Assembly (NCBI GenBank): GCA_049972095.1
Contig: JBMFKQ010000002.1
Span: 69,021-88,636 of the forward strand
Source of the DNA: Elusimicrobiales bacterium
GTDB taxonomy: Bacteria; Elusimicrobiota; Elusimicrobia; Elusimicrobiales; UBA9959
Reading direction: 5' to 3'
DNA: 19,616 bases
In this document: piece by piece, positions 860 to 19,403 of the stretch
Layout of the letters: every line of letters starts with the position of its first letter
How positions within the stretch are numbered: the stretch's first letter is position 1
Translations under genes and position numbers: made by a program
The notes under the pieces: model-generated
Told to the model about the DNA's origin: nothing
Databases searched by the model: none
Seen by the model: the letters and a program-made list of their open reading frames with translations, nothing else

Positions 860-1303
860 TTGAAAGATATTGTTTTAAGATATCCGGTGAGTTATGATAT
901 TGAGGTGATAAGATATGTCTCATATATGATGACATCTGATTTCTGGGTTTTTGTAAGTAAATCCGGAAATTTCTTTCAAATAAGGCTTACTCCAAAGAAA
1001 GATGGTGTATACGATCTAAGAAAAATTAAAAAAAGATTTGAAGATGAGTTAAAATACGAGATATTTAGAAAAAAACTCTTAGATAAAAATGCTGATTTCA
1101 GGTTTCACATAATAAAAAAGGCGATTACCTATACCCCACCCTCTCAAGAGGAACTTCCAGATGCTTTAACACCAGAGGAGCAAAAAGAGCTTGAAAGGCT
1201 TATAAAAGAGGCTGAGGAAGAGATAAAAAAAGAACTTCAAAAGGAGAAGGATGATGATATTAGAAAAACATGGGAAGAAAAATACGGCAAAAAAGTTAGA
1301 TAA
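860..1303 (+). CDS. hxsD: HxsD-like His-Xaa-Ser system accessory protein with acidic C-terminal extension
   Basis: RFEDELKYEIFRKKLLDKNADFRFHIIKKA resembles the HxsD C-terminal helix pattern (F.NEL....LR........IR..I...A). Lies directly upstream of hxsB; tail ends ...IRKTWEEKYGKK. Confidence 0.6.
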   Translation: MKDIVLRYPVSYDIEVIRYVSYMMTSDFWVFVSKSGNFFQIRLTPKKDGVYDLRKIKKRFEDELKYEIFRKKLLDKNADFRFHIIKKAITYTPPSQEELPDALTPEEQKELERLIKEAEEEIKKELQKEKDDDIRKTWEEKYGKKVR

Positions 1304-2720
1304 CACTCTCTTTGTAAGATGGAAAAAGATATCCAAAAACAAAGTTATAATGACAAATGATTTTGGAGGCTATATTATCCTTAAAGAAAAAGACCTCAAT
1401 GATTATATATCTAACAAAATAACTAAAAAACACAGACTTTACAAAGAGCTTTCAGAAAAGGGGTTTATAAAAACATTTATGGATTTTGACTCACTTTTCA
1501 GAAAGTGGAAAGACTTAAACTCATATCTTTTTACAGGCCCTTCACTTCATATAATTGTAATAACTCTTAGGTGCAATCAGAGATGCATTTACTGTCAAAG
1601 TCAAGCAGTTGGAATGAAAGATACAGACACTGATATGAATATTAACACAGCAAAAAAGGCTGTTGATACTGCTTTTTTATCACCTTCGAAAAACCTGATA
1701 ATAGAGTTTCAGGGTGGAGAGCCGCTTGTAAACTGGGATGTAGTTAAGAAAACAATAGAATATGCAAGGGAAAAAGAAAAAAAATCAGATAAGAGACTTT
1801 CACTATCGGTTGTCACAAATTTCTCGCTAATGGATGAAAAAAAGGCAGAGTTTCTTTTGAGAAATGAGATTTCACTCTGCACATCTCTTGATGGACCTAA
1901 GAGACTCCACGAGTCAAACAGGATATATTCAGGCTCAAGCTCTTATGAGCTTGCGGTTAAATGGATAAAATACTTTAACAATAAATATGAAAAACAGCAT
2001 GGACTTTCTTATAGGATATTCAAGCCATCAGCCCTTTTGACTGTTTCAAAAAAATCACTTGACTATCCTAAAGAGATAGTTGATGAATATGTTAAAAATG
2101 GCCTTGAAACCATTTTTATAAGACCACTTTCCCCAATAGGATTTGCCAAAAAACATTGGAATATTATAGGATATACTCCTGATGAGTTTGTAGATTTCTA
2201 CAAAAAAGCTCTTGAATACATAATAAAACTGAATATAAAAGGTAAAATACTTTACGAGAAAACAGCTCAGATGCTTTTAAACAAAATAATAAACTCAAAA
2301 GACCATGGATTTACTGATCTTAGATGTCCATGTGGTGCTGCAACAGGACAGATAGCATACAACTTCAACGGTGATGTCTACACCTGCGATGAGGGAAGGA
2401 TGGTGGGATGGGAAGGGGATGAATCGTTTAAAATAGGAAATCTTTTTAGTGATTCATACTCAAAACTTATAAACTCCCCAATAACAAGGATATGTATGCA
2501 TACATCAAACCTTGAAAATCAACCAAGATGCTCAAGATGTCCTTATATGCCGTGGTGTGGGGTTTGTCCTGTTGTTAACTACGAATCACAGTCTAACTTT
2601 TGGGGTGATAACTTTACATCATCAAGATGTGCTATAATGATGGGTATATTTGATACACTCTTTGAGTTTATGGAAAACAAAAGTTATTCCAAGGTTCTTA
2701 ACGACTGGGTAAAAATCTAA
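1251..2720 (+). CDS. hxsB: His-Xaa-Ser system radical SAM/SPASM maturase HxsB (copy 1)
   Basis: CNQRCIYC, IEFQGGEPL, CTSLDGP, FIRPLSPIGFA, DLRCPCGAATGQIAYNFNGDVYTCDEGRM and SPASM-type CSRCPYMPWCGVCP...RC. About 95 aa N-terminal extension; RBS aaggagaagg before ATG 1251. Confidence 0.85.
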   Translation: MMILEKHGKKNTAKKLDNTLFVRWKKISKNKVIMTNDFGGYIILKEKDLNDYISNKITKKHRLYKELSEKGFIKTFMDFDSLFRKWKDLNSYLFTGPSLHIIVITLRCNQRCIYCQSQAVGMKDTDTDMNINTAKKAVDTAFLSPSKNLIIEFQGGEPLVNWDVVKKTIEYAREKEKKSDKRLSLSVVTNFSLMDEKKAEFLLRNEISLCTSLDGPKRLHESNRIYSGSSSYELAVKWIKYFNNKYEKQHGLSYRIFKPSALLTVSKKSLDYPKEIVDEYVKNGLETIFIRPLSPIGFAKKHWNIIGYTPDEFVDFYKKALEYIIKLNIKGKILYEKTAQMLLNKIINSKDHGFTDLRCPCGAATGQIAYNFNGDVYTCDEGRMVGWEGDESFKIGNLFSDSYSKLINSPITRICMHTSNLENQPRCSRCPYMPWCGVCPVVNYESQSNFWGDNFTSSRCAIMMGIFDTLFEFMENKSYSKVLNDWVKI

Positions 2721-2734
2721 GGTGTGAGGTAAAG

Positions 2735-3013
2735 ATGAAGTATGAAATAGATCTTGACATATACTCGGCTGATGCTATAAAAATAGCAAAAAACATTATA
2801 GACAAAGAAGATCTCATAAAGATAAATATAAAAGATGAAAAGGCTGAGGCAATATTCGACGAAAAAAATATAACCTTATTTAATAATCTTATGAACGAAG
2901 CATTATCACAGCAATGCAGGATAGATACATCAAAGAAAAACTCAAAAGTAGCTGAGCTTTTGACAACTCTTGTTATACTTTCTGCCCTTGGAAAAGGAGG
3001 AGGCAAAAAATGA
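2735..3013 (+). CDS. hxsD: HxsD-like small protein (copy 2)
   Basis: 92 aa. N-terminal IDLDIYSADAIK and C-terminal FNNLMNEALSQQCR match the HxsD pattern; RBS gaggt upstream; follows hxsB. Confidence 0.65.
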   Translation: MKYEIDLDIYSADAIKIAKNIIDKEDLIKINIKDEKAEAIFDEKNITLFNNLMNEALSQQCRIDTSKKNSKVAELLTTLVILSALGKGGGKK

Positions 3014-4071
3014 AAAAATATATAGTGTTTGGTATAATAATCGTTGCAGCAGTTATTATTCTGCTACAGATTAAAAGCAGAAAAACTCCTATAATTCAAC
3101 AACCAGAAACACAAACTGAGGAGCTAAAAATAGGAAAAGAAATTCCAAAGGATTATACCACTCCACCACCTGTTTCTACTCCTCCACCATCCATTGAGCA
3201 AACTGTATCACCAGAGTATATGCAGATGACTGGATGCACAAAAACATTCGAAGACATAATTTCAGGCTGGGGTAAGGAATGGGGACCACCACCAAGGAAG
3301 ATAACATCCCCCATTCAACAACTAACATTATCCCCTCAGCAGACTAACAAAATAGTAGAGCTTCTAAAGGATTACCTTTTATGTGAGGCAATTGCCAATA
3401 AAGACCCATCAAAGTGTGATAGGTTTACACCGACAAAAGAAGAATGTACAAAGGTATATTATGAGTATCAGTTTAATGAGTTTTTTATAGGTGCAAATAA
3501 AAACGAAGCTGATTGTAAAAAATACCTAGAGATGGAGATACGTGATGAAAAGGAAAATCGGATACGTACAAGTGATTCCTGGCGTTTTTCATCTCTAAAT
3601 CTTAGCCCAGATAAAATTTGCTCCGAAATAAAAAATGATATAAGAGGGATATGTGATAGACTTTTCACAAACCCATCAGAAAGAAAAAAATGCTACACTG
3701 TTTTCCCTAAGAATATACTTGATGGGTGCCCAATGCCCAACAAAGAAGAATGCGTTAAAGCATATGAGAATATAAAAACTACAGGAAAATATGATTGCGA
3801 GTTTCTCGAAAAAGGCTCGGAAGAGTTATGTAAAATCAGAAAGATAGGAGGTGTTATATGTAGAGAAAAACTCAACAAACTTCTTTCGACATACTGCTCA
3901 TACCTTGCTGATCTTGAGGAAAAAAGGAAAAGAGAAGAAGAAAAGCTTAAACAAGCACAGGAGGAGGAAGAAAGAAAAAAGTTAGAGGGAGAGATAATAA
4001 AAAAGGCAAAGCAGGCTGCAGAGGAAGAAAAAAGATTTAGGAGGAAAAGAGGGGGTGGTGATGAAGAATAA
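3010..4071 (+). CDS. Membrane-anchored or secreted Cys-rich hypothetical protein with C-terminal charged coiled coil
   Basis: MKK plus hydrophobic stretch (YIVFGIIIVAAVIILL), Pro/Thr linker, 14 Cys, E/K/R-rich helical tail. ATGA overlap with the upstream gene. Confidence 0.75.
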   Translation: MKKYIVFGIIIVAAVIILLQIKSRKTPIIQQPETQTEELKIGKEIPKDYTTPPPVSTPPPSIEQTVSPEYMQMTGCTKTFEDIISGWGKEWGPPPRKITSPIQQLTLSPQQTNKIVELLKDYLLCEAIANKDPSKCDRFTPTKEECTKVYYEYQFNEFFIGANKNEADCKKYLEMEIRDEKENRIRTSDSWRFSSLNLSPDKICSEIKNDIRGICDRLFTNPSERKKCYTVFPKNILDGCPMPNKEECVKAYENIKTTGKYDCEFLEKGSEELCKIRKIGGVICREKLNKLLSTYCSYLADLEEKRKREEEKLKQAQEEEERKKLEGEIIKKAKQAAEEEKRFRRKRGGGDEE

Positions 4072-4396
4072 AAAAGCAAAAGAAAGCATAAAAAAATATC
4101 TAAAAAATTATCTAACAAGTGAAGAAGGAAAAATCCTTGATAGTGATGTTGTAAAAACTGCAATTGCCTTAGGGATTATTGGTGCATCACTTCCACAGGA
4201 AGCTGAGGCAGGTGTCTTTCATACAAATTACTTTACAGGAACACGGCATGTCTCCCATTCATCACATGGTTCTCACTCATCTCATGGAGCACATGGATCA
4301 CATTCATCTCATGGAGCTCATGGAGCACATTCATCTCATGGATCTCATGGATCTCATGGATCTCATGGATCTCATGCACGCGGTGGATGGTGCTGA
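4061..4396 (+). CDS. hxsA: His-Xaa-Ser repeat precursor peptide (HxsA-like), 111 aa
   Basis: ATG 4061 behind ggggtggtg is preferred over GTG 4055. Leader MKNKK...YLTSEEGKI...TAIALGIIGASLPQEAEA, then a core of 15 His-led triplets (11 HxS, 3 HGA, 1 HAR) and terminal GGWC; embedded among HxsB/C/D-like genes. Confidence 0.88.
   Translation: MKNKKAKESIKKYLKNYLTSEEGKILDSDVVKTAIALGIIGASLPQEAEAGVFHTNYFTGTRHVSHSSHGSHSSHGAHGSHSSHGAHGAHSSHGSHGSHGSHGSHARGGWC
4247..4381 (+). repeat. Coding 9-bp tandem repeat array (15 units) encoding the His triplets
   Basis: Units such as catggatct, cattcatct and catggagca. Four perfect catggatct copies at 4337-4372; 27-bp higher-order units starting at 4265, 4292 and 4319. 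Confidence 0.92.
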
Positions 4397-6653: not shown

Positions 6654-7554
6654 AAAACTTGATATAAAAATAACATTCAACTGCAACAATAGATGCGATT
6701 TCTGTGCACAAGGCTCAAAAAGGGAATATATAAAACCAAAGTCTTTTGAGGAGATAAAAAAAGCACTTTATGATGGCATAAAATCAGATGCAGGAACAGT
6801 AGTTCTTACGGGGGGAGAGCCAACCCTACATCCCGAGATAGTAAGAATTGTGAAAGAGGCAAAAAAAGCAGGTTATACAAGGATACAGCTCCAGACAAAT
6901 GGAAGAACACTTTGTAATGAAAGATTTCTAAAAGAATTGGTTTCAGCTGGTGTAAATGAGATAAGTCCAGCAATCCATGGGCCAAATTCACAAATTCATG
7001 ATATGCTAACACACTCACCTCAAAGCTTCAATCAAACCATTACTGGAATAAAAAATGCCAGAAAACTTGGAATATATGTTTTAACAAATACAGTAGTAAA
7101 TTCAGTTAATTATAAATATCTTCCGGAAATAGCAAAACTTCTTGTCTATTTAAATGTAAATCAGTTTCAATTCGCCTTTATACACATAGTAGGAAGGGGA
7201 TGGGAAAACAGAAACTGGATTGTTCCAAAAAAAACAGATGTTATGCCATACATATATAAAGGGCTTGAGATAGGAAGATCTGCAAAAACTCCATGCTACA
7301 CTGAGGCAATACCATACTGCATGATGCAGGGATATGAAGAGCATGTGGCTGAAAGAATAATACCGGATGGTCCTGTTGTTGACGCTGATGTATTTGTTGA
7401 AAACTTTGGAGAATACAGAAGAATAGAAGCAAAAGTCAAAGGCCCTCAATGTAAGGAGTGTTTTTATTACAATATCTGTGAAGGCCCGTGGAAGGAATAT
7501 CCTGAGATATACGGCTGGAGTGAGTTCAAACCTGTAATTAAAAAAAGAAAATGA
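6646..7554 (+). CDS. HxsC-like radical SAM protein
   Basis: ATG 6646 (MNKKLDIK) preferred over TTG 6637. CNNRCDFC, LTGGEPT, LQTNGR, IHG...HD.LT, IPYC, CKECFYYNICEGPWKEY...YGWSEFKP. Confidence 0.85.
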   Translation: MNKKLDIKITFNCNNRCDFCAQGSKREYIKPKSFEEIKKALYDGIKSDAGTVVLTGGEPTLHPEIVRIVKEAKKAGYTRIQLQTNGRTLCNERFLKELVSAGVNEISPAIHGPNSQIHDMLTHSPQSFNQTITGIKNARKLGIYVLTNTVVNSVNYKYLPEIAKLLVYLNVNQFQFAFIHIVGRGWENRNWIVPKKTDVMPYIYKGLEIGRSAKTPCYTEAIPYCMMQGYEEHVAERIIPDGPVVDADVFVENFGEYRRIEAKVKGPQCKECFYYNICEGPWKEYPEIYGWSEFKPVIKKRK

Positions 7555-8951
7555 TAATTGATATACTTTTTGAAAAGATAGATGAGAATAATTATTTTAT
7601 ATCATCCCACAGCGGGGCAAATACATTTCTTAAAAAAAATGAATTTATATCAGTAGTTGAAAATAGAATGCCTTCATATCTTTTTAGAAAACTCTATACT
7701 CTTGGAATGATAGTTGGCAAAGAAAATGAAAAAAGATACATATCAAACTACCTTAAGCTCAATAGATACCTATTTTCTCCACCAACACTTCATATAGTCG
7801 TGCTTACAACAAAATGCAACCATGCATGCGTCTACTGCAGAGCAAAACCAGAAGGGACAAAAATCATTGATATGAATTTCAAAACAGCACAAAAAACTAT
7901 TGACTTTATATTCTCTGTTCCATCAGATCATATAACTGTTGAGTTTCAAGGAGGAGAATCTTTCATAAACTGGAAGGTTTTTGAGGAATCTGTATTATAT
8001 ATAAATGAGAAAAACAGAAAAAAAGCTAAGGATGTCCTTATAACCATTGTTACAAATCTCTCACTTATGAACAGCAAAAAACTTGAGTTTATAATGAAAA
8101 ATAATATATCGCTATGCACATCACTTGATGGTCCTTGTGAGATACACAATACAAACAGAATCTATTTTGCTCAAGATTCGTACAAAAATACTATTCTTTG
8201 GCTTTCAAAAATTATTAAGCTTACATCAACTATAAAAAAAGGACAACCCGATTCTCTTCCCTCAGCTCTAATGACTACCACAAGGATCTCACTTAAGAGA
8301 TGGAAGGAGATAATAGATGAATATAGAAATCTTTCTCTTGGTGGCATATTCATAAGACCACTCTCTCCAATAGGATATGCATCATCAAGATGGAACGAAA
8401 TAGGATATACCCCTGATGAGTTCCTTGAGTTTTATGAAAAATCTCTTGACTATATAATAGAAATAAATAGAGAAGAAAAATTTATTGAAAGAAATGCAGC
8501 CATAAAACTTAAAAAAATACTTTTTAACGAAGATCCAAACTATCTTGATCTAAGAAGTCCATGCGGATCAGTCATAGGTCAGATGGCTTATTATCCAGAT
8601 GGAGGTATATACACATGTGATGAAGGGAGGATGATAGAAAACAAAGGAGAAAACATCTTTAAAATTGGAGATGTTTTCTCTTCATCATATAAAAGTATAA
8701 TTAAATCGCTAAAATCAAAGGCTGTTATTTATAGTTCTAACATAGATATCTATCCTCAATGCTCAAGGTGTGCTTTTAAACCATATTGTGGGGTGTGCCC
8801 AGCTTTTAATTATTCTACAAAAGGCTCCCTTATCAATATAGATTTCTCAAATTATTGGTGTGTAATTGAAAAGGGTATTTTCAAGATACTTATAAAAAAG
8901 CTGATGAAAAGGGAGATAAAAGATATATTTATGAGGTGGTTTGATGCCTGA
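7551..8951 (+). CDS. hxsB: His-Xaa-Ser system radical SAM/SPASM maturase HxsB (copy 2)
   Basis: PTLHIVVLTTKCNHACVYC, VEFQGGE, FIRPLSPIGYA, YLDLRSPCGSVIGQMAYYPDGGIYTCDEGRM, CSRCAFKPYCGVCP. Clear full-length paralog of 1251-2720. Confidence 0.85.
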   Translation: MIIDILFEKIDENNYFISSHSGANTFLKKNEFISVVENRMPSYLFRKLYTLGMIVGKENEKRYISNYLKLNRYLFSPPTLHIVVLTTKCNHACVYCRAKPEGTKIIDMNFKTAQKTIDFIFSVPSDHITVEFQGGESFINWKVFEESVLYINEKNRKKAKDVLITIVTNLSLMNSKKLEFIMKNNISLCTSLDGPCEIHNTNRIYFAQDSYKNTILWLSKIIKLTSTIKKGQPDSLPSALMTTTRISLKRWKEIIDEYRNLSLGGIFIRPLSPIGYASSRWNEIGYTPDEFLEFYEKSLDYIIEINREEKFIERNAAIKLKKILFNEDPNYLDLRSPCGSVIGQMAYYPDGGIYTCDEGRMIENKGENIFKIGDVFSSSYKSIIKSLKSKAVIYSSNIDIYPQCSRCAFKPYCGVCPAFNYSTKGSLINIDFSNYWCVIEKGIFKILIKKLMKREIKDIFMRWFDA

Positions 8952-9837
8952 CATATCACTGTGGAATAAATGTAATAACAGATGCATAATGTGCACAAAT
9001 CCAAGAGATTATTCTAATTCAGATCCATATGGTAATTATGATTTAAAAACCCAGATAAAAAAAATAAATCTTTACCTTCAAGGTAAAGATGATGTTTTTT
9101 ACCCAAACCACAAAAGAAAAGACTATATAAACATAACAGGTGGAGAGCCAACCCTTCATCCAAATTTTTTTCATCTTATAAGATACTTTTCTGATAAATT
9201 TAAAAAAACACCAATAACACTTTTAACAAATGGTAGAAGGTTTTCGGATGAAACATTTGCTAAAAAATTTTCAGCAATAACAAATGAAAGATTTACTGCT
9301 GCCATAAGTATTCATTCATACAGATCTGATGTCTTTGACAAAATAACAGGAGTAAAAAAAAGTTATCATCAAACAATATCAGGACTTATGAATCTTATGA
9401 AATACTTTTGTGGAAGTATAGAGATAAGAACTGTTGTTCATAAACTCAATATAGAAGATTTAAAACAAACCATTCTTTTTGTAAAGGATCTAATGATAGC
9501 TTATAGAAATTGGTATCATGTTATTATACACTATGAGATAGAAGGAGTTGGTGAGGAAAATAGAAAAATAATAAAACTCAAACTTTCAGACTCTGCAAAG
9601 GTAATAGAAGAAATTGATGAAGATATATTAAAAGCATCAAACATAAGACTTTATCATTTTCCACTTTGTATACTTAATCCGAGACTCAGAAGATATGCAT
9701 GGAAAACACTTCCAGATAATGAGATTATTTTTACAAAAAAATGTGAAAAATGCATTTTAAAAAAGAAATGTCTTGGACTTATGAAAAGATATTATGAACT
9801 TTATGGAGACGATGAGCTTAAAACAGTTTGTAGATAA
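8944..9837 (+). CDS. hxsC: His-Xaa-Ser system radical SAM maturase HxsC (closest to the canonical form)
   Basis: CNNRCIMCTNP, ITGGEPTL, LLTNGRRF, EIRTVVHKLN, EIEG...N, LYHFPLCIL...AW, CEKCILKKKCLG. Immediately follows hxsB as in canonical hxsBC pairs. Confidence 0.8.
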   Translation: MPDISLWNKCNNRCIMCTNPRDYSNSDPYGNYDLKTQIKKINLYLQGKDDVFYPNHKRKDYINITGGEPTLHPNFFHLIRYFSDKFKKTPITLLTNGRRFSDETFAKKFSAITNERFTAAISIHSYRSDVFDKITGVKKSYHQTISGLMNLMKYFCGSIEIRTVVHKLNIEDLKQTILFVKDLMIAYRNWYHVIIHYEIEGVGEENRKIIKLKLSDSAKVIEEIDEDILKASNIRLYHFPLCILNPRLRRYAWKTLPDNEIIFTKKCEKCILKKKCLGLMKRYYELYGDDELKTVCR

Positions 9838-10999
9838 CCTGAGTATTTTTCTATTTTATGCATCAGCATTCTTTTACATAACATGGGGAATTTTTATTAT
9901 AAAGGAAGATTTTGAAACAGGAAAGATAAAAAATTCACATATCATCTTAGCATTTAGATTTACACTTTTTATGCTTTTAATACAACTAACACTAACTCTT
10001 CTTGGAAGCTATGGATATATCAGCAATTACTTAACAAATCAGTTTTACATATACTATTTTTATAATCTCATACAGTCTGCAATCTTTTCATACATACTTT
10101 GGTATGGGGAGGTATGGCCTGCTGGGGATTCAAAGTTTTATACTGCAAATATGGTAATAATCCCTCTTATAAATCCTCAACTACGAGGATTTCCACAATC
10201 TTTATGGCTATTATGCCTTATAAACATATTTATAATAGCTGCTTTTTTTTCTATCTATTCATATGTAAAGGAAAACAGCACAATGCTTAGAAAAGGAGAT
10301 AATGATGCATTCAAAGAAATAAAAGAATATTACAAAAATGAGTTAAAGGAATCTTTAAAACTTAAACCTCAAAACCTTTTTATGATATTCTCACTTTTCT
10401 CAGTCTTCTCATATAAACAGACACTCAACCTCCTTCTTCAAAACTACATCTTTAACATCTTTCACAGAACAGACATATTCTTTTTTCTTCTTTACTTTCT
10501 ATGGCCTAAGATATCAACAATGTTTAGATCAAAGATCTGGAAGTACATAATGTTTGTTTTTTATGTCTGGCTTTTAATATATGCATTACTGTCTCCACAA
10601 TCATATGAGATAATAAAAAATATAATAATAACTGCTATAAAAAACACTTTTAAGTTTGCAACAATCTTTACTGTTGGAAAAATAATATTTGAAAAGATAA
10701 TAGAAGCCCACAATATATTCTATGCCTCAAAGGATGAGATAAAGCCTGGTATGATCCTTTCATCATATGAGCTTGGAATAATCAAGAAAAATGAGGTATT
10801 TAATGGAATCTTTGATGATCTTTTTAAGGATGGGCTTAGTGAAGAGCAGGTTGAGGTTCTTAAGAAATGGATGGAAAATCATCCTAATAAAAATGTTAAG
10901 CTAAGATTTGTAAGAGCAAAACCATTTGCATTCAATATATTTATAGGGTGTCTGATGCAGATAATAATTAACAAAAATCTGCTTAAGCTAATATTATGA
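9794..10999 (+). CDS. Polytopic membrane protein, putative A24 (prepilin/preflagellin peptidase-like) GxGD aspartic protease
   Basis: Many hydrophobic segments. First-Asp motif EDFETGKIKN (D39), second WPAGDSKF (D112), and C-terminal EIKPGMIL...GLSEEQV...PFAFNIFIG resembling FlaK-type A24 C-termini. Start codon uncertain (9794, 9803 or 9812). Confidence 0.7.
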   Translation: MNFMETMSLKQFVDNLSIFLFYASAFFYITWGIFIIKEDFETGKIKNSHIILAFRFTLFMLLIQLTLTLLGSYGYISNYLTNQFYIYYFYNLIQSAIFSYILWYGEVWPAGDSKFYTANMVIIPLINPQLRGFPQSLWLLCLINIFIIAAFFSIYSYVKENSTMLRKGDNDAFKEIKEYYKNELKESLKLKPQNLFMIFSLFSVFSYKQTLNLLLQNYIFNIFHRTDIFFFLLYFLWPKISTMFRSKIWKYIMFVFYVWLLIYALLSPQSYEIIKNIIITAIKNTFKFATIFTVGKIIFEKIIEAHNIFYASKDEIKPGMILSSYELGIIKKNEVFNGIFDDLFKDGLSEEQVEVLKKWMENHPNKNVKLRFVRAKPFAFNIFIGCLMQIIINKNLLKLIL

Positions 11000-11919
11000 G
11001 GAAATTAAAAAAACTTGTAATATTCCTTGGCTATTCATGTAGCAACAACTGTGTCTTTTGCATAAACAGTCAAAGAAGAAACAAAATAAAAGACAAATCA
11101 ACACATGAGGTTTTAAAGGAGATCTATCTTGCTGCGAAAAAAGAAAAGGTTGATATTCTTGAACTGATAGGTGGTGAGGCAACAATAAGAAAGGATTTTT
11201 TTGAGATAATATCTACGGCAAAAAAACTCAAGATTCCAGATATAGTTATTGCAACTAATGGTAGAGCATTTGCAGACATAGACTTTTGTAAAAAAGCCTT
11301 AGAAGCCGGACTTTCTACCATAATATTTTCAATACACGGACATACACCACAGCTTCACGACAAACTTACAAGATCACCTAAGGCATTTTCTCAGATGATG
11401 AAGGGTATAGAAAACCTTAAAAAAATAGGTTTTTCAAGGATAAACGCTAACACAACAGTGGTCAAAACAAACTATAGATACCTTCCAAAAATAGCATTTC
11501 TTCATATAAAACTTGGAATAAGAGATGTTGAATATATATTTGTTGATCCCCAAGAAGGCGGTGCTAATGAAAATTTTGATAAGCTTGTGCCAAGAATATC
11601 AGATGCCTCAATTTATATGAAAAAGGCACTTGAAATAGGGATAAAAAACGGCTTTAATCACTGGAAGGTAAGGTATGTTCCACTATGCTACTTTTCAGAT
11701 TATCTTGACTACATTAGCGAGATAAATGAAGCAAAGCTTTTTAAATCAAAACACTGGGCACCTGATTTTAAGGATGATGATGTAGTTAAATCAAGGAAAA
11801 AATACGGGAGAACAAAGACAGAAAGATGTATAGGATGTAAGCTATATAATCTCTGTGAGGGAATATGGAAGGAGTATATAAAAAAATATGGAGACAGCGA
11901 ACTAAATCCAATAAAATAA
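10996..11919 (+). CDS. HxsC-like radical SAM protein (paralog of 6646-7554)
   Basis: CSNNCVFC, LIGGEAT, ATNGR, SIHGH...HDKLT, NTTVV..NYRYLP, VPLC, CIGCKLYNLCEGIWKEY...YGDSELNP. Confidence 0.85.
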   Translation: MRKLKKLVIFLGYSCSNNCVFCINSQRRNKIKDKSTHEVLKEIYLAAKKEKVDILELIGGEATIRKDFFEIISTAKKLKIPDIVIATNGRAFADIDFCKKALEAGLSTIIFSIHGHTPQLHDKLTRSPKAFSQMMKGIENLKKIGFSRINANTTVVKTNYRYLPKIAFLHIKLGIRDVEYIFVDPQEGGANENFDKLVPRISDASIYMKKALEIGIKNGFNHWKVRYVPLCYFSDYLDYISEINEAKLFKSKHWAPDFKDDDVVKSRKKYGRTKTERCIGCKLYNLCEGIWKEYIKKYGDSELNPIK

Positions 11920-14119: not shown

Positions 14120-14766
14120 ATTTTACATTACTATAAAAGAAATATTTAGTCTCTCTAATTGATTAACATTTAATTAACCTACCACAAAAGTAAGGTTAAA
14201 GATATGAAAATAGAGAAAATTGAGAGAAATTATTAAATAATATCAAAGAAAACAGAAAAAAGGAAAGTTGTTATCATATCATATTCAGGTGGAAAAAGAT
14301 TTTCATATTGCAATAATCAAACTAATTGAAAAAGAATTTTTTTCTGTTTTTCTAAGCCTATTCTTGGAGAAAGAAATTTAAGATACCTTAACTGTCCTGA
14401 CTTGAGTGAGCTAATTAAAATAGTAAAATAACTAAAAAACTTTTAGAAGCAAACAAAGAAAAACTTGAAGAACCATTATCTAATTTTTTTATAGACTGTA
14501 GTTGTTCAATTATCATTGTTTAAAGATAATACCCAAATTTTCATAGATCAAATTAAAAAAATTCTTCATCATTATTATTATTCCAAAACCTACTAAATCC
14601 AAGTTTATCTTAAATTAATTAGTAATTAAGCAAATCTTGAGACATAAAAATAAGATGTGGAACAATTTTAAATTTTGGATATTGGATTCTGGAACATTAA
14701 AAGATAATACTTATAAAATCAAACATAATTTAATTTTAGTGAAAAGATGATGGGTGAGAAGTGAAA

Positions 14767-14995
14767 TGTAAGACATAAGCAATTTTAAGTATTGGATGTT
14801 GAATTTCAAATTTCGGAGTATGACAGAAGAATGTAGTGTGCTGGTATTTATTTTTACACAATCTCATAAACAAAATACACATCTAAAGAGAGGAATAACT
14901 ATAAAGGTATTTTAAAAGTGGTGATTCTCTTTAGATAGAAAAAAGAAAACAAAGAATTAACCCCTGAAAGGTCCCAAAACATATGTAATCCTACA
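14767..14995 (+). mobile_element. Degenerate IS481-like remnant (TGT...ACA bounded)
   Basis: 14945-14995 matches the reverse complement of 19515-19565 at 37/51 positions ungapped (peptides ENKELTPERSQNICNPT vs ENKELTPENSKMYGDLT) and ends in ACA. Upstream FIFTQSHKQNTHLKR loosely resembles the integrase-core P.SP.QN.H.ER motif. The left boundary (tgtaaga at 14767) is tentative. Confidence 0.55.
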
Positions 14996-16076
14996 ACTTG
15001 AAATTTTTTATTATTTGTAGTAGAGATGCTGTATAAACGCGGGAAAAGTTTAATTGATTTATAAACCATTCTCGTGGACTTTGACCTGAAAATTTACAAA
15101 AGAAATATAAAGCCATAGGGCAATAAAAAAAAAGAAAAGAATCTTTAAAATTGTAGGTTATATATTTTTTTGCCTCTTTTAATAAACTATCCCTTTTATC
15201 CCATAAAATACCCTGCTTTATATTACCTATTGTAAAAGATTCATTATTACCCTTTGAAATAAATCTCATACACTCATCACATATATAATAATTTCCATCA
15301 GGGCCAACATTAATCTGTCTACACTCATGCCACCAGTATCTTCTTTCCAAATATTTTGTAACTCTTTTCCAAACATCTTCTATTTCTGGAAATGTTTTTG
15401 TTAGTTTATCCCATGTGAAATTTTCAGATAAAATAAAATGTTCAAATTTATTAAAACTGTGTTTTAAGTTAACTAAATCAACCTGTCTCCATTTAGTATA
15501 CATAACAGGAGTAAATCTTATTTCAGTAAAACCCAGTTTTAGTAATGATCTTATATTATTTGTAAAACTATTAAGAGTATTAATACTAAAAAACATTTTC
15601 GCATTTAATTGTGTGTGTTTCTTGAGTATAGGTATTACTCTTAATAATTTTTCATAAACTGAACTTTTGTTATTCAAAAATTGTCTATATTTATCATTTA
15701 TATTTCTCAAACCATCAATACTTACATAGATCTTTACTCCTTTTATGGTAAGGAATTTAATTCTATCCTCATTTAGGTTTGTCCCATTTGTTGTTATATC
15801 AATATTTATATCATAAGTTTTATACTTTAGCCTTATATAATCTATTATCCTTTCTATTGTTTTATAATACAAAAAAGGTTCTCCTCCAATTATAGAAATA
15901 TATTTGCGATTATAATTTGAAGAATAAATAATAAATCTGTCTATTGCTCTGTATAGCATAGCCACATCATCCAGCGTCTTTGAAATATTTTTATCTATAA
16001 AACAATATTTACACCTCATATTACATTCATTGGTCAGGTATAAATAAAGAGACTCTATATTATCAGCTTTGGTCAT
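14991..16076 (-). CDS. Radical SAM protein, third subtype
   Basis: YLTNECNMRCKYC, IIGGEPF, TTNG, VSIDG...NDKYR.F, WWHECRQINVGPDGNYYICDECMR, FFYCPMALY. Confidence 0.85.
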   Translation of the reverse strand: MTKADNIESLYLYLTNECNMRCKYCFIDKNISKTLDDVAMLYRAIDRFIIYSSNYNRKYISIIGGEPFLYYKTIERIIDYIRLKYKTYDINIDITTNGTNLNEDRIKFLTIKGVKIYVSIDGLRNINDKYRQFLNNKSSVYEKLLRVIPILKKHTQLNAKMFFSINTLNSFTNNIRSLLKLGFTEIRFTPVMYTKWRQVDLVNLKHSFNKFEHFILSENFTWDKLTKTFPEIEDVWKRVTKYLERRYWWHECRQINVGPDGNYYICDECMRFISKGNNESFTIGNIKQGILWDKRDSLLKEAKKYITYNFKDSFLFFYCPMALYFFCKFSGQSPREWFINQLNFSRVYTASLLQIIKNFKL

Positions 16077-17145
16077 TTAAACCTCTTTTGTAAATTTTAG
16101 ATACCTTTAGTAAGCCATTTACCATATTGATTGATATATCCAATAGGTGTCTCAATTTATAATAAGGATCTTCCTTACGATATTTACATAAAAAATATAA
16201 ACCTAAAGGACAATAAAAAAAAAACTGTGACCCTTTTATGTTTTTGATAACATATTCTCTTGCCTCTTCAATTAAAGACCTTCTCTTTTTAAAATCTATA
16301 CCTGTTCTTAAATCACCTACAACACCTTCGTTTTCTTCTAATGGTAGTCTCATACACTCATCACATACATAATACTTACCATCAGGACCAAGATTTAGCT
16401 GTCTACACTCATACCACCATGGAAGTGCTTTTTTAGTATAAAAAGGTAATCTTTTTAAAAAATCTTCAACATCTCGGAACTTAACATTTCTATATTTATC
16501 GACTATAATAGATATTTTCTCCAATTCTTTTTGTAACAATTTTAAAGACTTTTTGGAAAATTTTGTATATAGCTCAGCCAAGAGATGTATTTCTACAAAA
16601 CCTTTTTTAGCCATATATTCTATATTTTTGGAAAGAAAAGCTACATTTTTGGGAGTAACTACCATCTTTACACAAAAATCTTTAGATAAGTCTCTCCTCT
16701 GAAAAAGATTATTTAATATATTATGAACTGATTTAGATTTCTTTATTATAAACCTTCTATTTTCATCATTAACTTTCTTAATCCCATCCCAATTAACAGA
16801 TAAGTTAACTCTATATTTTTTAAACTCTTCTATTAAATTTTGGTTCAATAGTACTCCATTAGTGGTAAGCTCAAAGCTAAGATTCCGTACAGAAGAATAA
16901 TTCTTTACTAACCTAAGAATAGTATCAGAAATAAGCAATGGTTCTCCTCCTAAAAAAAGGATATGTTTAGTTGAACTTTTAGAAACTTTTAAAAAATAAT
17001 CAGTTGCATTTTTTAGATCTGTAAAAGAAAGTTTATATTTTCTTTTATCACTGAGATTATCCTTTAAGGCACAATACTTACATTGCAGATTGCATATATT
17101 AGAAGTATATATACTTAATTGATCTAAATTCTCCTTTTCAGTCAT
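16063..17145 (-). CDS. Radical SAM protein, third subtype (tandem paralog of 14991-16076)
   Basis: CNLQCKYC, FLGGEPL, TTNG, WWYECRQLNLGPDGKYYVCDECMR, FFYCPLGLY. Confidence 0.85.
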   Translation of the reverse strand: MTEKENLDQLSIYTSNICNLQCKYCALKDNLSDKRKYKLSFTDLKNATDYFLKVSKSSTKHILFLGGEPLLISDTILRLVKNYSSVRNLSFELTTNGVLLNQNLIEEFKKYRVNLSVNWDGIKKVNDENRRFIIKKSKSVHNILNNLFQRRDLSKDFCVKMVVTPKNVAFLSKNIEYMAKKGFVEIHLLAELYTKFSKKSLKLLQKELEKISIIVDKYRNVKFRDVEDFLKRLPFYTKKALPWWYECRQLNLGPDGKYYVCDECMRLPLEENEGVVGDLRTGIDFKKRRSLIEEAREYVIKNIKGSQFFFYCPLGLYFLCKYRKEDPYYKLRHLLDISINMVNGLLKVSKIYKRGLNDQS

Positions 17146-19403
17146 GACACTATTGGGATTATATCACAAAATCTTCCATCACTAACAGTTTTTTCATCTG
17201 ATATTCTTAAAGGAGATTTAAAATAATCCTCATGAGGACCAGGACAATGTGTTAAATATTTACACACCAAACATGACTCAAGTTTTATAATTTCTTCTTC
17301 ACTTTCTCTTGCATCTGGAATAAAAAGAAAGGACTCAAAAAGTTCTTCTTGTTTAGGATAAAGAAGACATGGTAAAGAATTTAAAATGACAGTTCTTATA
17401 CCAACAGCAGCTGCTTTATCTGCTATTGCAAAAGTATTTTCTTTAAGTTTCTTATAAAGTAAATAACAATCATTATCATAAGACCCAACAGGAAGGATAA
17501 ATAATAATCCATCCGCATTTTTCTTCTTAGACAATTTTATTTTATTCTCAAAATTTTTAAACTCTTTGTCTCCAAGCCCACAATAAAAGAAAAACTTTAT
17601 CCCGCTCTCTTTAAAAATTCTTAACTGGTTGTTTTCTTGCAATGATAAAGGAAGATAAACAAGAGACAAGCCTGCATTTTTAAGTCTTGTAGCATTATAA
17701 CTATTAAGATCATCAAAAGCAGGGCACATAAATGCTGAATCTAAACCTTTTTTACCTGCCATATAAACCATTAAATAGGCTTTCTTAAAAGATATAGGTT
17801 CAGAATCACAAAATACTATTTGTTTAAGACCCAAAGTTTTTTTATGAGAAATTTCAATAAAAATCTCTTCTAAAGGTCTTTCTTTAAGCCCATCTTTTGC
17901 TGCTATTAAATTATATAGAGTCAATCCTTCTCTTAAAAAGCAAAGTTTTGAATATTTGTTATGAATGTTTTTAAGAGATTTATTTTCACTTATTAAACTT
18001 TTTTCTTTCTTTTTCGCTATTCTTATATCAGCATATGAGGCAAGTTTGTAAATTATTTTAGGTGGGAAAAATACTGAACTAAGATCAAAAACTCCCTTAT
18101 TCCTGTTTTTAAGGATATAGCTGTCACAAGTTTTCAAAATCCTTCCCATTTCTAAAAGCCTTTTTAACTCAAGTCCAATCGTTTTTTCTGGTGATTTTCC
18201 AAATTTTTCTTTAAAATCTTTTAGGACCAGCTGACCTGTGTGCAAAAATTTTACTACCGCATAGTTGATTATCTCATCTTTTTTAGAAAGAAAAACAATC
18301 TTTTCAACCGGCAATAGTCCTTTTTCTATCAATGAAATATAACGACCAACATCAGAAACATTTTGATACCTCTGCTTACCAGCACAGTATGTTATTGAAC
18401 TCGCTCCAAGTCCAAGGGTAGAGTATCCTTTTTCTTCCTGCTGATCATAAGTATAGGGCCACTCTCCACCTTTTCCTTTAAAAATCCAATGACCACAACG
18501 CATAATATAACCCTTTTTTTCTATAAGCCAATCTATCCCCTTTTTGCGCCAAGCCCTTGCTTTGTCCATTGATTCACCATATAAGGAAGCGCTATGAAAA
18601 TCATTATAACTACTAAATTTCCTTGGTTGCCAGTCAAAAATATAAACACGCTGCAGTTCAAATTGGGAAAGAATCTCTATATCTCTCATAAAAATCTCTT
18701 CTGTTTGTCCGGGAAGTCCTACAATCAAATCAGCCTCAATATTTTCTATACCAGCTTTTATAGCATTATTTAAAGCATTAATTGCCTGTTGTTGGGTTTG
18801 CGGTCTACCAAGGCCCCTCATTAGTTCTTCATTGAAACTCTGGATTCCTATTGCAAGATAATTAACACCAAGCTCCTTTAGTTTAACAGCCTTCTGATAG
18901 GTTAGAGTATGTGGAGATGCTTCCATTGCTATTTTTGTTTGAGATGTAATAGTAAAGTTTTCTTTGAAAACTTTCATAAGAATCTCTAATTGTTTTTCTG
19001 AAAGTATAGTTGGAGTACCACCACCAAAAAAAAGAGCTCTTATAGGAAAATTCTTAAAAGCATCTTTAAAATAGATAGTCTCTTTAACTAAAGCCTTTAG
19101 GTAGTATTCTATTTCCAGATGACTATCTGGTATTTTTCTATAAAAGCCACAAAACTTACATATATATGAACAAAATGGAATATGAACATAAATAACTGGA
19201 TTTATGTTTCTGTTTTTGCTATTTGATTCCCTCCATAGTTTTACCACTTTTTCCGGCTTTATACCCATTACTCTATCCCATGAAAAAAATGGAGGATAGT
19301 TCGGTGGCATTTCCGGCAGCAAATTTTCATCACTTATAGCAAAAATCTTTTCCAAAAAGCCTTCATCAAAAATATCACAAGACAAAGTTTTATTCCTTTT
19401 CAT
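17142..19403 (-). CDS. HemN-like (class C-type) radical SAM protein fused to a degenerate HxsC-like domain
   Basis: VYVHIPFCSYICKFCGF, FFGGGTPT, GIQSF, DLIVGLPGQT, LGLGASS and a HemN C-terminal-like region. The last ~270 aa carry IVFCDSEP, NSLPCLL and CLVCKYLTHCPG without a CxxxCxxC. Confidence 0.82.
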   Translation of the reverse strand: MKRNKTLSCDIFDEGFLEKIFAISDENLLPEMPPNYPPFFSWDRVMGIKPEKVVKLWRESNSKNRNINPVIYVHIPFCSYICKFCGFYRKIPDSHLEIEYYLKALVKETIYFKDAFKNFPIRALFFGGGTPTILSEKQLEILMKVFKENFTITSQTKIAMEASPHTLTYQKAVKLKELGVNYLAIGIQSFNEELMRGLGRPQTQQQAINALNNAIKAGIENIEADLIVGLPGQTEEIFMRDIEILSQFELQRVYIFDWQPRKFSSYNDFHSASLYGESMDKARAWRKKGIDWLIEKKGYIMRCGHWIFKGKGGEWPYTYDQQEEKGYSTLGLGASSITYCAGKQRYQNVSDVGRYISLIEKGLLPVEKIVFLSKKDEIINYAVVKFLHTGQLVLKDFKEKFGKSPEKTIGLELKRLLEMGRILKTCDSYILKNRNKGVFDLSSVFFPPKIIYKLASYADIRIAKKKEKSLISENKSLKNIHNKYSKLCFLREGLTLYNLIAAKDGLKERPLEEIFIEISHKKTLGLKQIVFCDSEPISFKKAYLMVYMAGKKGLDSAFMCPAFDDLNSYNATRLKNAGLSLVYLPLSLQENNQLRIFKESGIKFFFYCGLGDKEFKNFENKIKLSKKKNADGLLFILPVGSYDNDCYLLYKKLKENTFAIADKAAAVGIRTVILNSLPCLLYPKQEELFESFLFIPDARESEEEIIKLESCLVCKYLTHCPGPHEDYFKSPLRISDEKTVSDGRFCDIIPIVS

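Follow-up and report, generated by a model that had tools for sequence, protein, structure and literature searches.

A candidate leader peptidase of the A24 type in a His-Xaa-Ser radical SAM cluster of Elusimicrobiota

The stretch of DNA discussed here, called the window below, is 19,616 nucleotides long and comes from an Elusimicrobiales bacterium (assembly GCA_049972095.1, contig JBMFKQ010000002.1). It holds a cluster of radical S-adenosylmethionine (SAM) genes resembling the His-Xaa-Ser (HXS) peptide system, and within this cluster an open reading frame (ORF) at 9794..10999 (+), which encodes a membrane protein of 401 residues. Judged from sequence comparison and a predicted structure, this ORF is real and its product is a divergent A24 aspartic peptidase, belonging to an unannotated A24 subfamily tied to HxsA3/HxsA4 systems. 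The peptidase very probably acts in some way on the HxsA4 precursor encoded in the same cluster. It is also likely, though with rather less certainty, to be the dedicated leader peptidase of HxsA3/HxsA4 His-Xaa-Ser precursors, cutting after a leader glycine (between G23 and K24 here).

Fold and family of the peptidase

The ORF was found by ORF scanning and starts with ATG; hydropathy, together with fold and profile matches to FlaK, marks its product as a polytopic FlaK/EppA-like protein with about ten hydrophobic segments. Close homologues begin nearer to M4 or M7 than to M1. The protein itself has no match in Pfam, neither it nor 36 distant members of its family match any NCBIfam family, and phmmer with the protein against the PDB gave no match. 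A phmmer search of 1.84 billion representative sequences found 219 proteins at E ≤ 0.001, 150 of which were listed. The family alignment has 132 rows, made up of the 125 listed hits of 320–480 residues, the window protein and six close homologues.

The first-pass annotation had proposed an A24 peptidase on the basis of two candidate aspartate motifs (ED...KIKN and PAGDSK), and both are present and conserved. The first predicted catalytic aspartate, D39 (9908..9910, +), lies at the end of the first helix (residues 2–42 in the model), in the sequence E38-D39 followed by G43-K44-I45-K46-N47, and aligns with the first Asp motif of FlaK. It is kept in 131 of the 132 rows, the sole miss being a fragment. 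The second, D112, lies in W108-P-A-G-D112-S-K114 (10115..10135, +), aligned with the GGGDGK stretch of FlaK; W108, D112 and K114 are kept in every row, and G111 in 129. This is an x-A-G-D form of GxGD, which in the family reads [PA]-A-G-D, with G-D retained and the first Gly of the strict G-x-G-D replaced. In FlaK the two aspartates are numbered D18 and D79. In the predicted model D39 lies at the end of helix 1 and D112 after helix 3, and a count of helices would thus place both on the same side of the membrane. Although the rows share only about 20% identity, the two aspartates and G-D-x-K hardly vary among them.

The AlphaFold2 model has a predicted local distance difference test score of 82 and a predicted template modelling score of 0.76. 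Its top structural match is FlaK (PDB 3s0x), spanning model residues 20–401, with 174 of 186 residues aligned at a root mean square deviation of 3.2 and a Z score that is weighed below; among 48,161 chains FlaK was the only one at Z ≥ 8, and the next match had Z 6.9. A profile built from the 36 distant members also matches FlaK (E 0.0028) and brings the two Asp motifs and the final helix into line; the alignment of the C-terminal helix with the last helix of FlaK bears out the FlaK-like C-terminus noted at first pass. The suggested Pfam check gave a divided answer: PF01478 is found at E ≤ 0.1 in 36 of 48 family members scanned, six of them over the cut-off, and is not matched by the window protein. 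PF06819, looked for as a sign of the Arc_PepC C-terminal region of EppA, is weak in the family (2/48 members at E ≤ 0.1). The Atlas neighbours of the peptidase are A24 clusters. The A24 assignment is thus supported by structure, by the profile match to FlaK, by Pfam on the relatives and by the Atlas.

A profile of 129 rows matches P0416, an unnamed protein of 392 residues carrying PF01478, PF06819 and PF06847, over 331 columns and its full length (probability 99.2). P0416, whose motif reads A-G-G-D, is taken here to be EppA-like, and from this likeness we infer that the peptidase is a long EppA-like form rather than a TadV- or PilD-like one. The available text of a review distinguishes a FlaK/PibD form of A24 peptidases with five transmembrane (TM) helices from an EppA form with nine (PMC4858521), and the family has about four more hydrophobic segments than FlaK, which has six helices (PMC4471445, in the part available), a parallel to the two forms. 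The window protein shares with archaeal EppA (arCOG02300, 9 TM) and with FlaK/PibD (5–6 TM) the A24 core, the two aspartates and the FlaK-like final helix, and, as EppA does, it seems to act as an additional peptidase with its own substrate next to the general one. It differs from them in lying in bacterial radical SAM Hxs clusters and not in pilus operons, in having W-[PA]-A-G-D where they have G-G-G-D, and in its predicted substrate, a His-repeat peptide rather than a pilin. Against the PDB the 129-row profile found only unrelated membrane helices, and profile comparison with the PilD of the same genome was not significant (probability 0.5). A family tree from a quick search was uninformative on origin: the rows intended as a TadV outgroup are TadE pseudopilins, and PilD and P0416 sit on long branches. 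Two other identities were considered and rejected, a TadV serving Tad pili (there is no Flp pilin in the peptidase-bearing genomes) and the housekeeping PilD (the genome encodes a separate one).

The precursor, its leader and their linkage to the peptidase

The predicted substrate is an HxsA4-type precursor of 111 residues (4061..4396, +; NF038313, 52.4 bits against a cut-off of 55), which is the sole leader match in the genome. Its predicted prepeptide, M1–G23 (4061..4129, +), ends in Y-L-T-S-E-E-G, and the cut at G23|K24 is predicted from the leader profile and the register of Flp prepilin leaders. The following segment, K24–A50 (4130..4210, +), consists of a charged spacer, a hydrophobic segment and an A-E-A motif, and would resemble a Sec signal once exposed; by eye it is similar to the N-termini of canonical HxsA proteins. 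The remainder (4211..4393, +) is the His-Xaa-Ser repeat core ending in RGGWC, which from its sequence and the family alignment is presumed to be the radical SAM target.

The motif common to HxsA3/HxsA4 leaders is F-L-x-S-E-E-[GA]. The full leader profile, found in 133 of 135 precursors, has a basic stretch followed by F-7, L-6, S-4, E-3, E-2, G/A-1, K+1, I+2, D/N+6, K+9 and G/A+11. The part N-terminal to the predicted cut has a median length of 22 residues and a mean net charge of +3.3, is hydrophilic and ends in Gly or Ala. When 121 precursors were anchored without position -1 (one truncated sequence being left out), that position was G in 113 and A in 8. The same register is seen in 11 Flp prepilins of other Elusimicrobiota (F-7 in 8, L-6 in 7, E-3 in 6 and G-1 in all 11), and the -7 to -1 register also matches TadE leaders. 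The leader profile gives Flp pilins low scores (E 0.03 at best, within a small set) and the Pfam family PF04964 (Flp_Fap) has no match in 17 leaders; because there is no significant alignment, the Flp likeness of the leader rests on motif register. On this reading of the sequences the leader is Flp-like before the cut and not after it, where Glu+5 and Tyr+6 are missing and there is more charge. In class III cleavage Glu+5 is described as dispensable and Gly-1 as critical (PMC4471445, in the part available), which would fit a substrate that is cut yet not polymerised.

Near the peptidase, the leader is also found on cargo in which His-Xaa-Ser repeats are few or absent (L128:665-1903, L131:93-641, L135:3530-4906, L186:5002-5538 and L189:4289-4810). 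This cargo includes Cys/Asp-rich sequences and Trp-Ser-Asp repeats and is up to 458 residues long, which suggests, as far as sequences can, that the leader is portable between cargos.

A scan of genomes gave 195 confirmed loci, 80 of which were returned; those with a taxon name are from Elusimicrobiota, nine are titled only 'bacterium', and one locus (L009) was excluded, leaving 79. A radical SAM gene adjoins the peptidase in 74 of the 79. Within 10 kb there is an HxsB-like gene in 61 and a His-repeat precursor in 20; 19 of these precursors contain S-E-E-[GA] and the remaining one is truncated at the locus edge. Among 251 sampled Elusimicrobiota genomes, peptidase and leader are each present in 30 and occur together in 29, and HxsB is present in 32, so that the co-occurrence with Hxs precursors looked for at first pass is found, and it extends to distant lineages. 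The genomes that depart from the pattern deserve comment. In the genome with a leader only (G226), the contig ends directly after the usual upstream gene, exactly at the expected place of the peptidase. One genome with HxsB and no peptidase (G138) encodes an HxsA of the canonical kind, bearing a plain signal together with a peptidoglycan-binding domain; another with HxsB and neither peptidase nor leader (G111) is uninformative, the place of hxsA being beyond the contig end. TIGR03979, the canonical HxsA, is found in none of 21 related genomes, and the window precursor has no peptidoglycan-binding domain. Copy number varies, with two peptidases and two leader-bearing precursors in G236, three peptidase pieces and two precursors in G174, and one peptidase and two precursors in G060.

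A metagenome scan with the distant-member profile gave 563 confirmed stretches, 80 of which were returned. Of these 80 loci, 72 have radical SAM genes; among the 31 with a length of 10 kb or more, 30 do. Seventeen loci carry 18 precursors, some of them duplicates: 12 were found by their repeats, all 12 having the leader, and 6 by the leader alone. Named relatives of the distant peptidases are from Patescibacteria, Nealsonbacteria and Parcubacteria, and named precursors include Omnitrophota and a Diapherotrites archaeon (as precursor sequences). Two compact operons are informative. One (L213) has the order hxsA3-hxsD-peptidase-hxsC-hxsB, with HxsA3, HxsC and HxsB over their cut-offs; the other (L221, MT837156.1) encodes, besides the peptidase, HxsC and HxsB, a pair of small proteins that look HxsD-like by eye, a MORN protein and a precursor with the leader. 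HxsB and HxsC are the only radical SAM enzymes in either, and all that these operons share with the window is the Hxs core, the leader and the peptidase. This implies that the peptidase goes with the Hxs core and not with the additional radical SAM genes.

Both compact operons include a MORN-repeat protein (L213:2520-7982 and L221:871-6425), and that of L213 also has a peptidoglycan-binding domain; it possibly supplies in trans the domain which canonical HxsA carries as a fusion. The two operons come from records filed as viral, and the L213 operon abuts an integrase-like ORF (by eye). A search of viral contigs found one peptidase locus, L213, and seven viral loci matching the repeats showed no sign of Hxs systems.

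Plasmids and Flp pilins served as controls. HxsB is carried by 22 plasmids; tblastn with two peptidases against the whole plasmid collection gave no match, and the peptidase profile matched none of five hxsB plasmids (both searches covering plasmids and not chromosomes). In six loci that were fetched, the precursor is visible in five and the leader in none, and the leader is absent from the six canonical HxsA/HxsA2 precursors examined. The Flp pilin family PF04964 is found in 78 of the 251 genomes but in none of the 30 that bear the peptidase. The source genome has its own PilD for type IV pilins, and seven proteins with a type IV N-terminal motif.

Proposed role and alternatives

From these observations, and taking E. 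coli HXS as the model, we hypothesise that the His-Xaa-Ser core receives its modification from HxsB, HxsC and HxsD while still in the cytoplasm. The hydrophobic segment of the precursor would enter the membrane and set the leader motif at its cytoplasmic face, where D39 and D112 would remove the basic prepeptide of 23 residues. The new N-terminus, K24–A50, would then read as a Sec signal ending in AxA, and the modified core would be exported and released by signal peptidase I. Given the AxA and the hydrophobic segment downstream of the cut, it is signal peptidase I and not the A24 peptidase that would free the core, and the latter would probably take off no more than the initial part of the leader. 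The dedicated leader peptidase suggested at first pass is favoured by linkage and co-occurrence, in a modified form: a long EppA-like enzyme with this more limited task.

The end function is probably that of an envelope-located, phage-blocking effector, if the analogy with HXS holds. According to the main text of the HXS study, E. coli HxsA is modified (+8 Da) and cleaved at its N-terminus in a manner that depends on HxsB, HxsC and HxsD, by a mechanism left unexplained; it is periplasmic and blocks phage DNA entry, an activity shown for the E. coli system only (PMC13128918). A more tentative idea, which we think possible and do not favour, is that an export gate for ribosomal peptides has arisen by co-option of a pilin-processing module (a Flp-type prepeptide with an EppA-like peptidase). 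The prepeptide would keep the precursor at the radical SAM enzymes and mask the Sec signal, and the A24 cut would unmask it, so that only matured effector leaves. Such a module would be portable, from Elusimicrobiota to Patescibacteria-type, Bacillota-type and archaeal systems.

Several points weigh against the proposed role. The FlaK match, at Z 11.3, falls below the level of about 13 under which the tool advises caution for helical bundles, and Foldseek gave no match at E ≤ 0.001, with FlaK at rank 31 (E 9.1). The 30 peptidase-positive genomes come from three related families, and the counts are not independent events. One of them (G150, in 90 contigs) has the peptidase and no leader or HxsB match in its assembly. 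The leader is a non-canonical class III signal: K+1 is present in 109 of 133 precursors, E+5 in 15 and K+9 in 100, charge extends as far as +9, and the median uncharged stretch is 15 residues long, where class III signals have about 21. At +11 a further G/A shows almost the same conservation (G 81, A 38, S 1, C 1 of 121), and the cut site is to that extent uncertain. The leader could be a mere recognition motif for HxsB/HxsD, and the operon of E. coli HxsA, which undergoes N-terminal processing, includes no dedicated peptidase (PMC13128918, main text).

The alternative that survives best is also based on the +11 residue. It holds that the peptidase cleaves there, just inside the hydrophobic segment, or degrades the remnant left by signal peptidase I, and that F-L-x-S-E-E-G serves mainly for docking of HxsB/HxsD. 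Besides the conservation of +11, this is favoured by the K-x that precedes it in Elusimicrobiota, giving a basic class III-like site, and by the apparent lack (by eye) in HxsA3/A4 of the pre-repeat spacer of canonical precursors, which would require the recognition motif to be in the leader. We nonetheless consider it unlikely: in the two compact operons +11 directly follows hydrophobic residues, which does not look like a class III site, and the -7 to -1 register fits Flp and TadE leaders.

It is more improbable that the peptidase has a different substrate, such as a membrane or secreted protein of the cluster or the type IV pilins, and merely rides with Hxs clusters. The large Elusimicrobiota clusters do hold uncharacterised membrane proteins (such as that of window 3010-4071), the genome encodes the seven proteins with a type IV N-terminal motif, and G150 has its peptidase without a leader match. 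Against this stand the separate PilD, the absence of Flp pilins from the 30 peptidase genomes, and the compact operons, whose only parts in common with the window are the Hxs core, the leader and the peptidase.

A further alternative is a hybrid between a pilin and a ribosomally synthesised and post-translationally modified peptide (RiPP), in which the cut HxsA4 keeps its hydrophobic helix and is either anchored in the membrane or polymerised like Flp, displaying the modified His-Ser repeats. After an A24 cut the mature protein does normally retain its hydrophobic helix (PMC4471445, PMC4858521, in the parts available), the leader is in Flp register, and a strict AxA, present in 79 of 133 precursors, is missing in 54. 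We regard it as very improbable given the lack of Glu+5/Tyr+6, the short hydrophobic stretch, the 0/17 leaders matching PF04964 and the absence of pilus genes among the window ORFs. Finally, that the protein is a non-catalytic scaffold or translocation helper of the radical SAM complex, for which its additional helices and the non-canonical HxsA export route suggested in the main text of the HXS paper (PMC13128918) might be cited, is scarcely credible in a family that keeps both aspartates and G-D-x-K through such divergence.

Returning to the leader peptidase proposed here, comparison with known systems is instructive. Canonical HXS of Pseudomonadota (HxsA-B-C-D; PMC13128918, main text; TIGR03976–TIGR03979) has in common with the window HxsB, HxsC-like and HxsD-like proteins and a His-Xaa-Ser precursor needing N-terminal processing. 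It differs in having four genes, no peptidase, and an HxsA that combines a plain signal peptide with a peptidoglycan-binding domain, whereas the window has a short precursor, an extra prepeptide and a cluster of 12 radical SAM genes. The main text of that paper contains no occurrence of peptidase, protease, prepilin, HxsA3, HxsA4 or Elusimicrob. In NCBIfam, HxsA3 (NF038309) and HxsA4 (NF038313) match the leader-bearing precursors, and the peptidase has no model. With TadV/CpaA and Flp pilins the shared feature is the -7 to -1 register of the leader; TadV is a truncated peptidase (PMC3244431, in the part available), compared with 401 residues here, and the window precursor differs from Flp in lacking Glu+5 and Tyr+6, as do the peptidase-bearing genomes in lacking an Flp match.

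Searches of mostly open-access full texts turned up no account of an A24 peptidase acting on RiPP leaders, and an earlier mention in subscription papers or in NCBIfam curator comments is possible; nor is the pairing of peptidase and precursor described in the available text of a preprint on Elusimicrobia nitrogenase paralogs (bioRxiv 10.1101/765248) or of PMC9062424. If confirmed, the proposal would bring a further protease class into RiPP biosynthesis and would be a case of a pilus enzyme taken over for peptide maturation. For the cutting and export of HxsA, which the HXS study leaves unexplained, a candidate enzyme, substrate and scissile bond can now be named. Leader motif and peptidase can also be used together to mine for precursors with unusual cargo.

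Other genes of the window

The peptidase gene lies in a forward-strand run with HxsD-like, HxsB, HxsC-like and HxsA4-like genes. All 12 ORFs of the contig with a CxxxCxxC motif are within the window, giving the 12 radical SAM genes of the cluster. The overlapping HxsC-like genes reported on either side of the peptidase are indeed there, both scoring under their cut-offs. Its 5' end overlaps an HxsC-like radical SAM gene (8941..9837, +; TIGR03977, 168 bits against 267.9), and its stop is coupled through an ATGA overlap to an HxsC/HxsC4-like one (10996..11919, +; NF038332, 148 bits against 500). In close loci these are the usual upstream and downstream neighbours. Further upstream are an HxsD-like gene (860..1303, +; TIGR03976, 34 bits against 50), the HxsB radical SAM maturase (1251..2720, +; TIGR03978, 509 bits against 370) and a second HxsB (7551..8951, +; 439 bits against the same cut-off). 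A small conserved protein of 92 residues directly 3' of hxsB (2735..3013, +) is probably a second HxsD-type protein; it is kept in many related loci, has no NCBIfam match, and its HxsD likeness was judged by eye. The HXS gene set is thus assembled in one locus, with HxsB over the cut-off twice and the HxsC, HxsD and HxsA4 matches just or well below theirs. No pilus family was matched in Pfam or NCBIfam by the 18 window ORFs scanned, in agreement with the earlier remark that pilus assembly genes are missing. Scans for promoters and terminators gave results at chance level.

Directly 5' of hxsA, here and in several related loci, is a gene for a Cys-rich protein of 353 residues with an N-terminal hydrophobic anchor and no family match (3010-4071). 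The gene 5' of hxsD (1-849) ends in a conserved Cys-containing tail, and in related loci (for example L017:5286-6760) this position is occupied by a secreted protein with a conserved T-T-Y-Y-P-A-P-Y-G motif.

In the peptidase cluster of G150 (L117:7470-11599) there are several HemN-like genes and, judged by eye, a NifH-like N-terminus. The cluster may be the counterpart of the group VI nitrogenase-paralog/radical SAM clusters described from groundwater Elusimicrobia (bioRxiv 10.1101/765248), which are similarly large, in which case their substrate is possibly a peptide and not a tetrapyrrole. The available text of that preprint proposes a tetrapyrrole product and contains no occurrence of peptidase, prepilin or His-Xaa-Ser.

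An AT-rich gap of 870 bases (14120-14990), touched only by two short ORFs of 48 and 56 residues, separates the converging gene blocks of the window. Beyond it, on the opposite strand (14991-19403, -), are three more radical SAM genes, one of them encoding a HemN-like protein of 753 residues. These genes probably belong to the pathway, because in relatives their homologues lie inside the forward-strand cluster.

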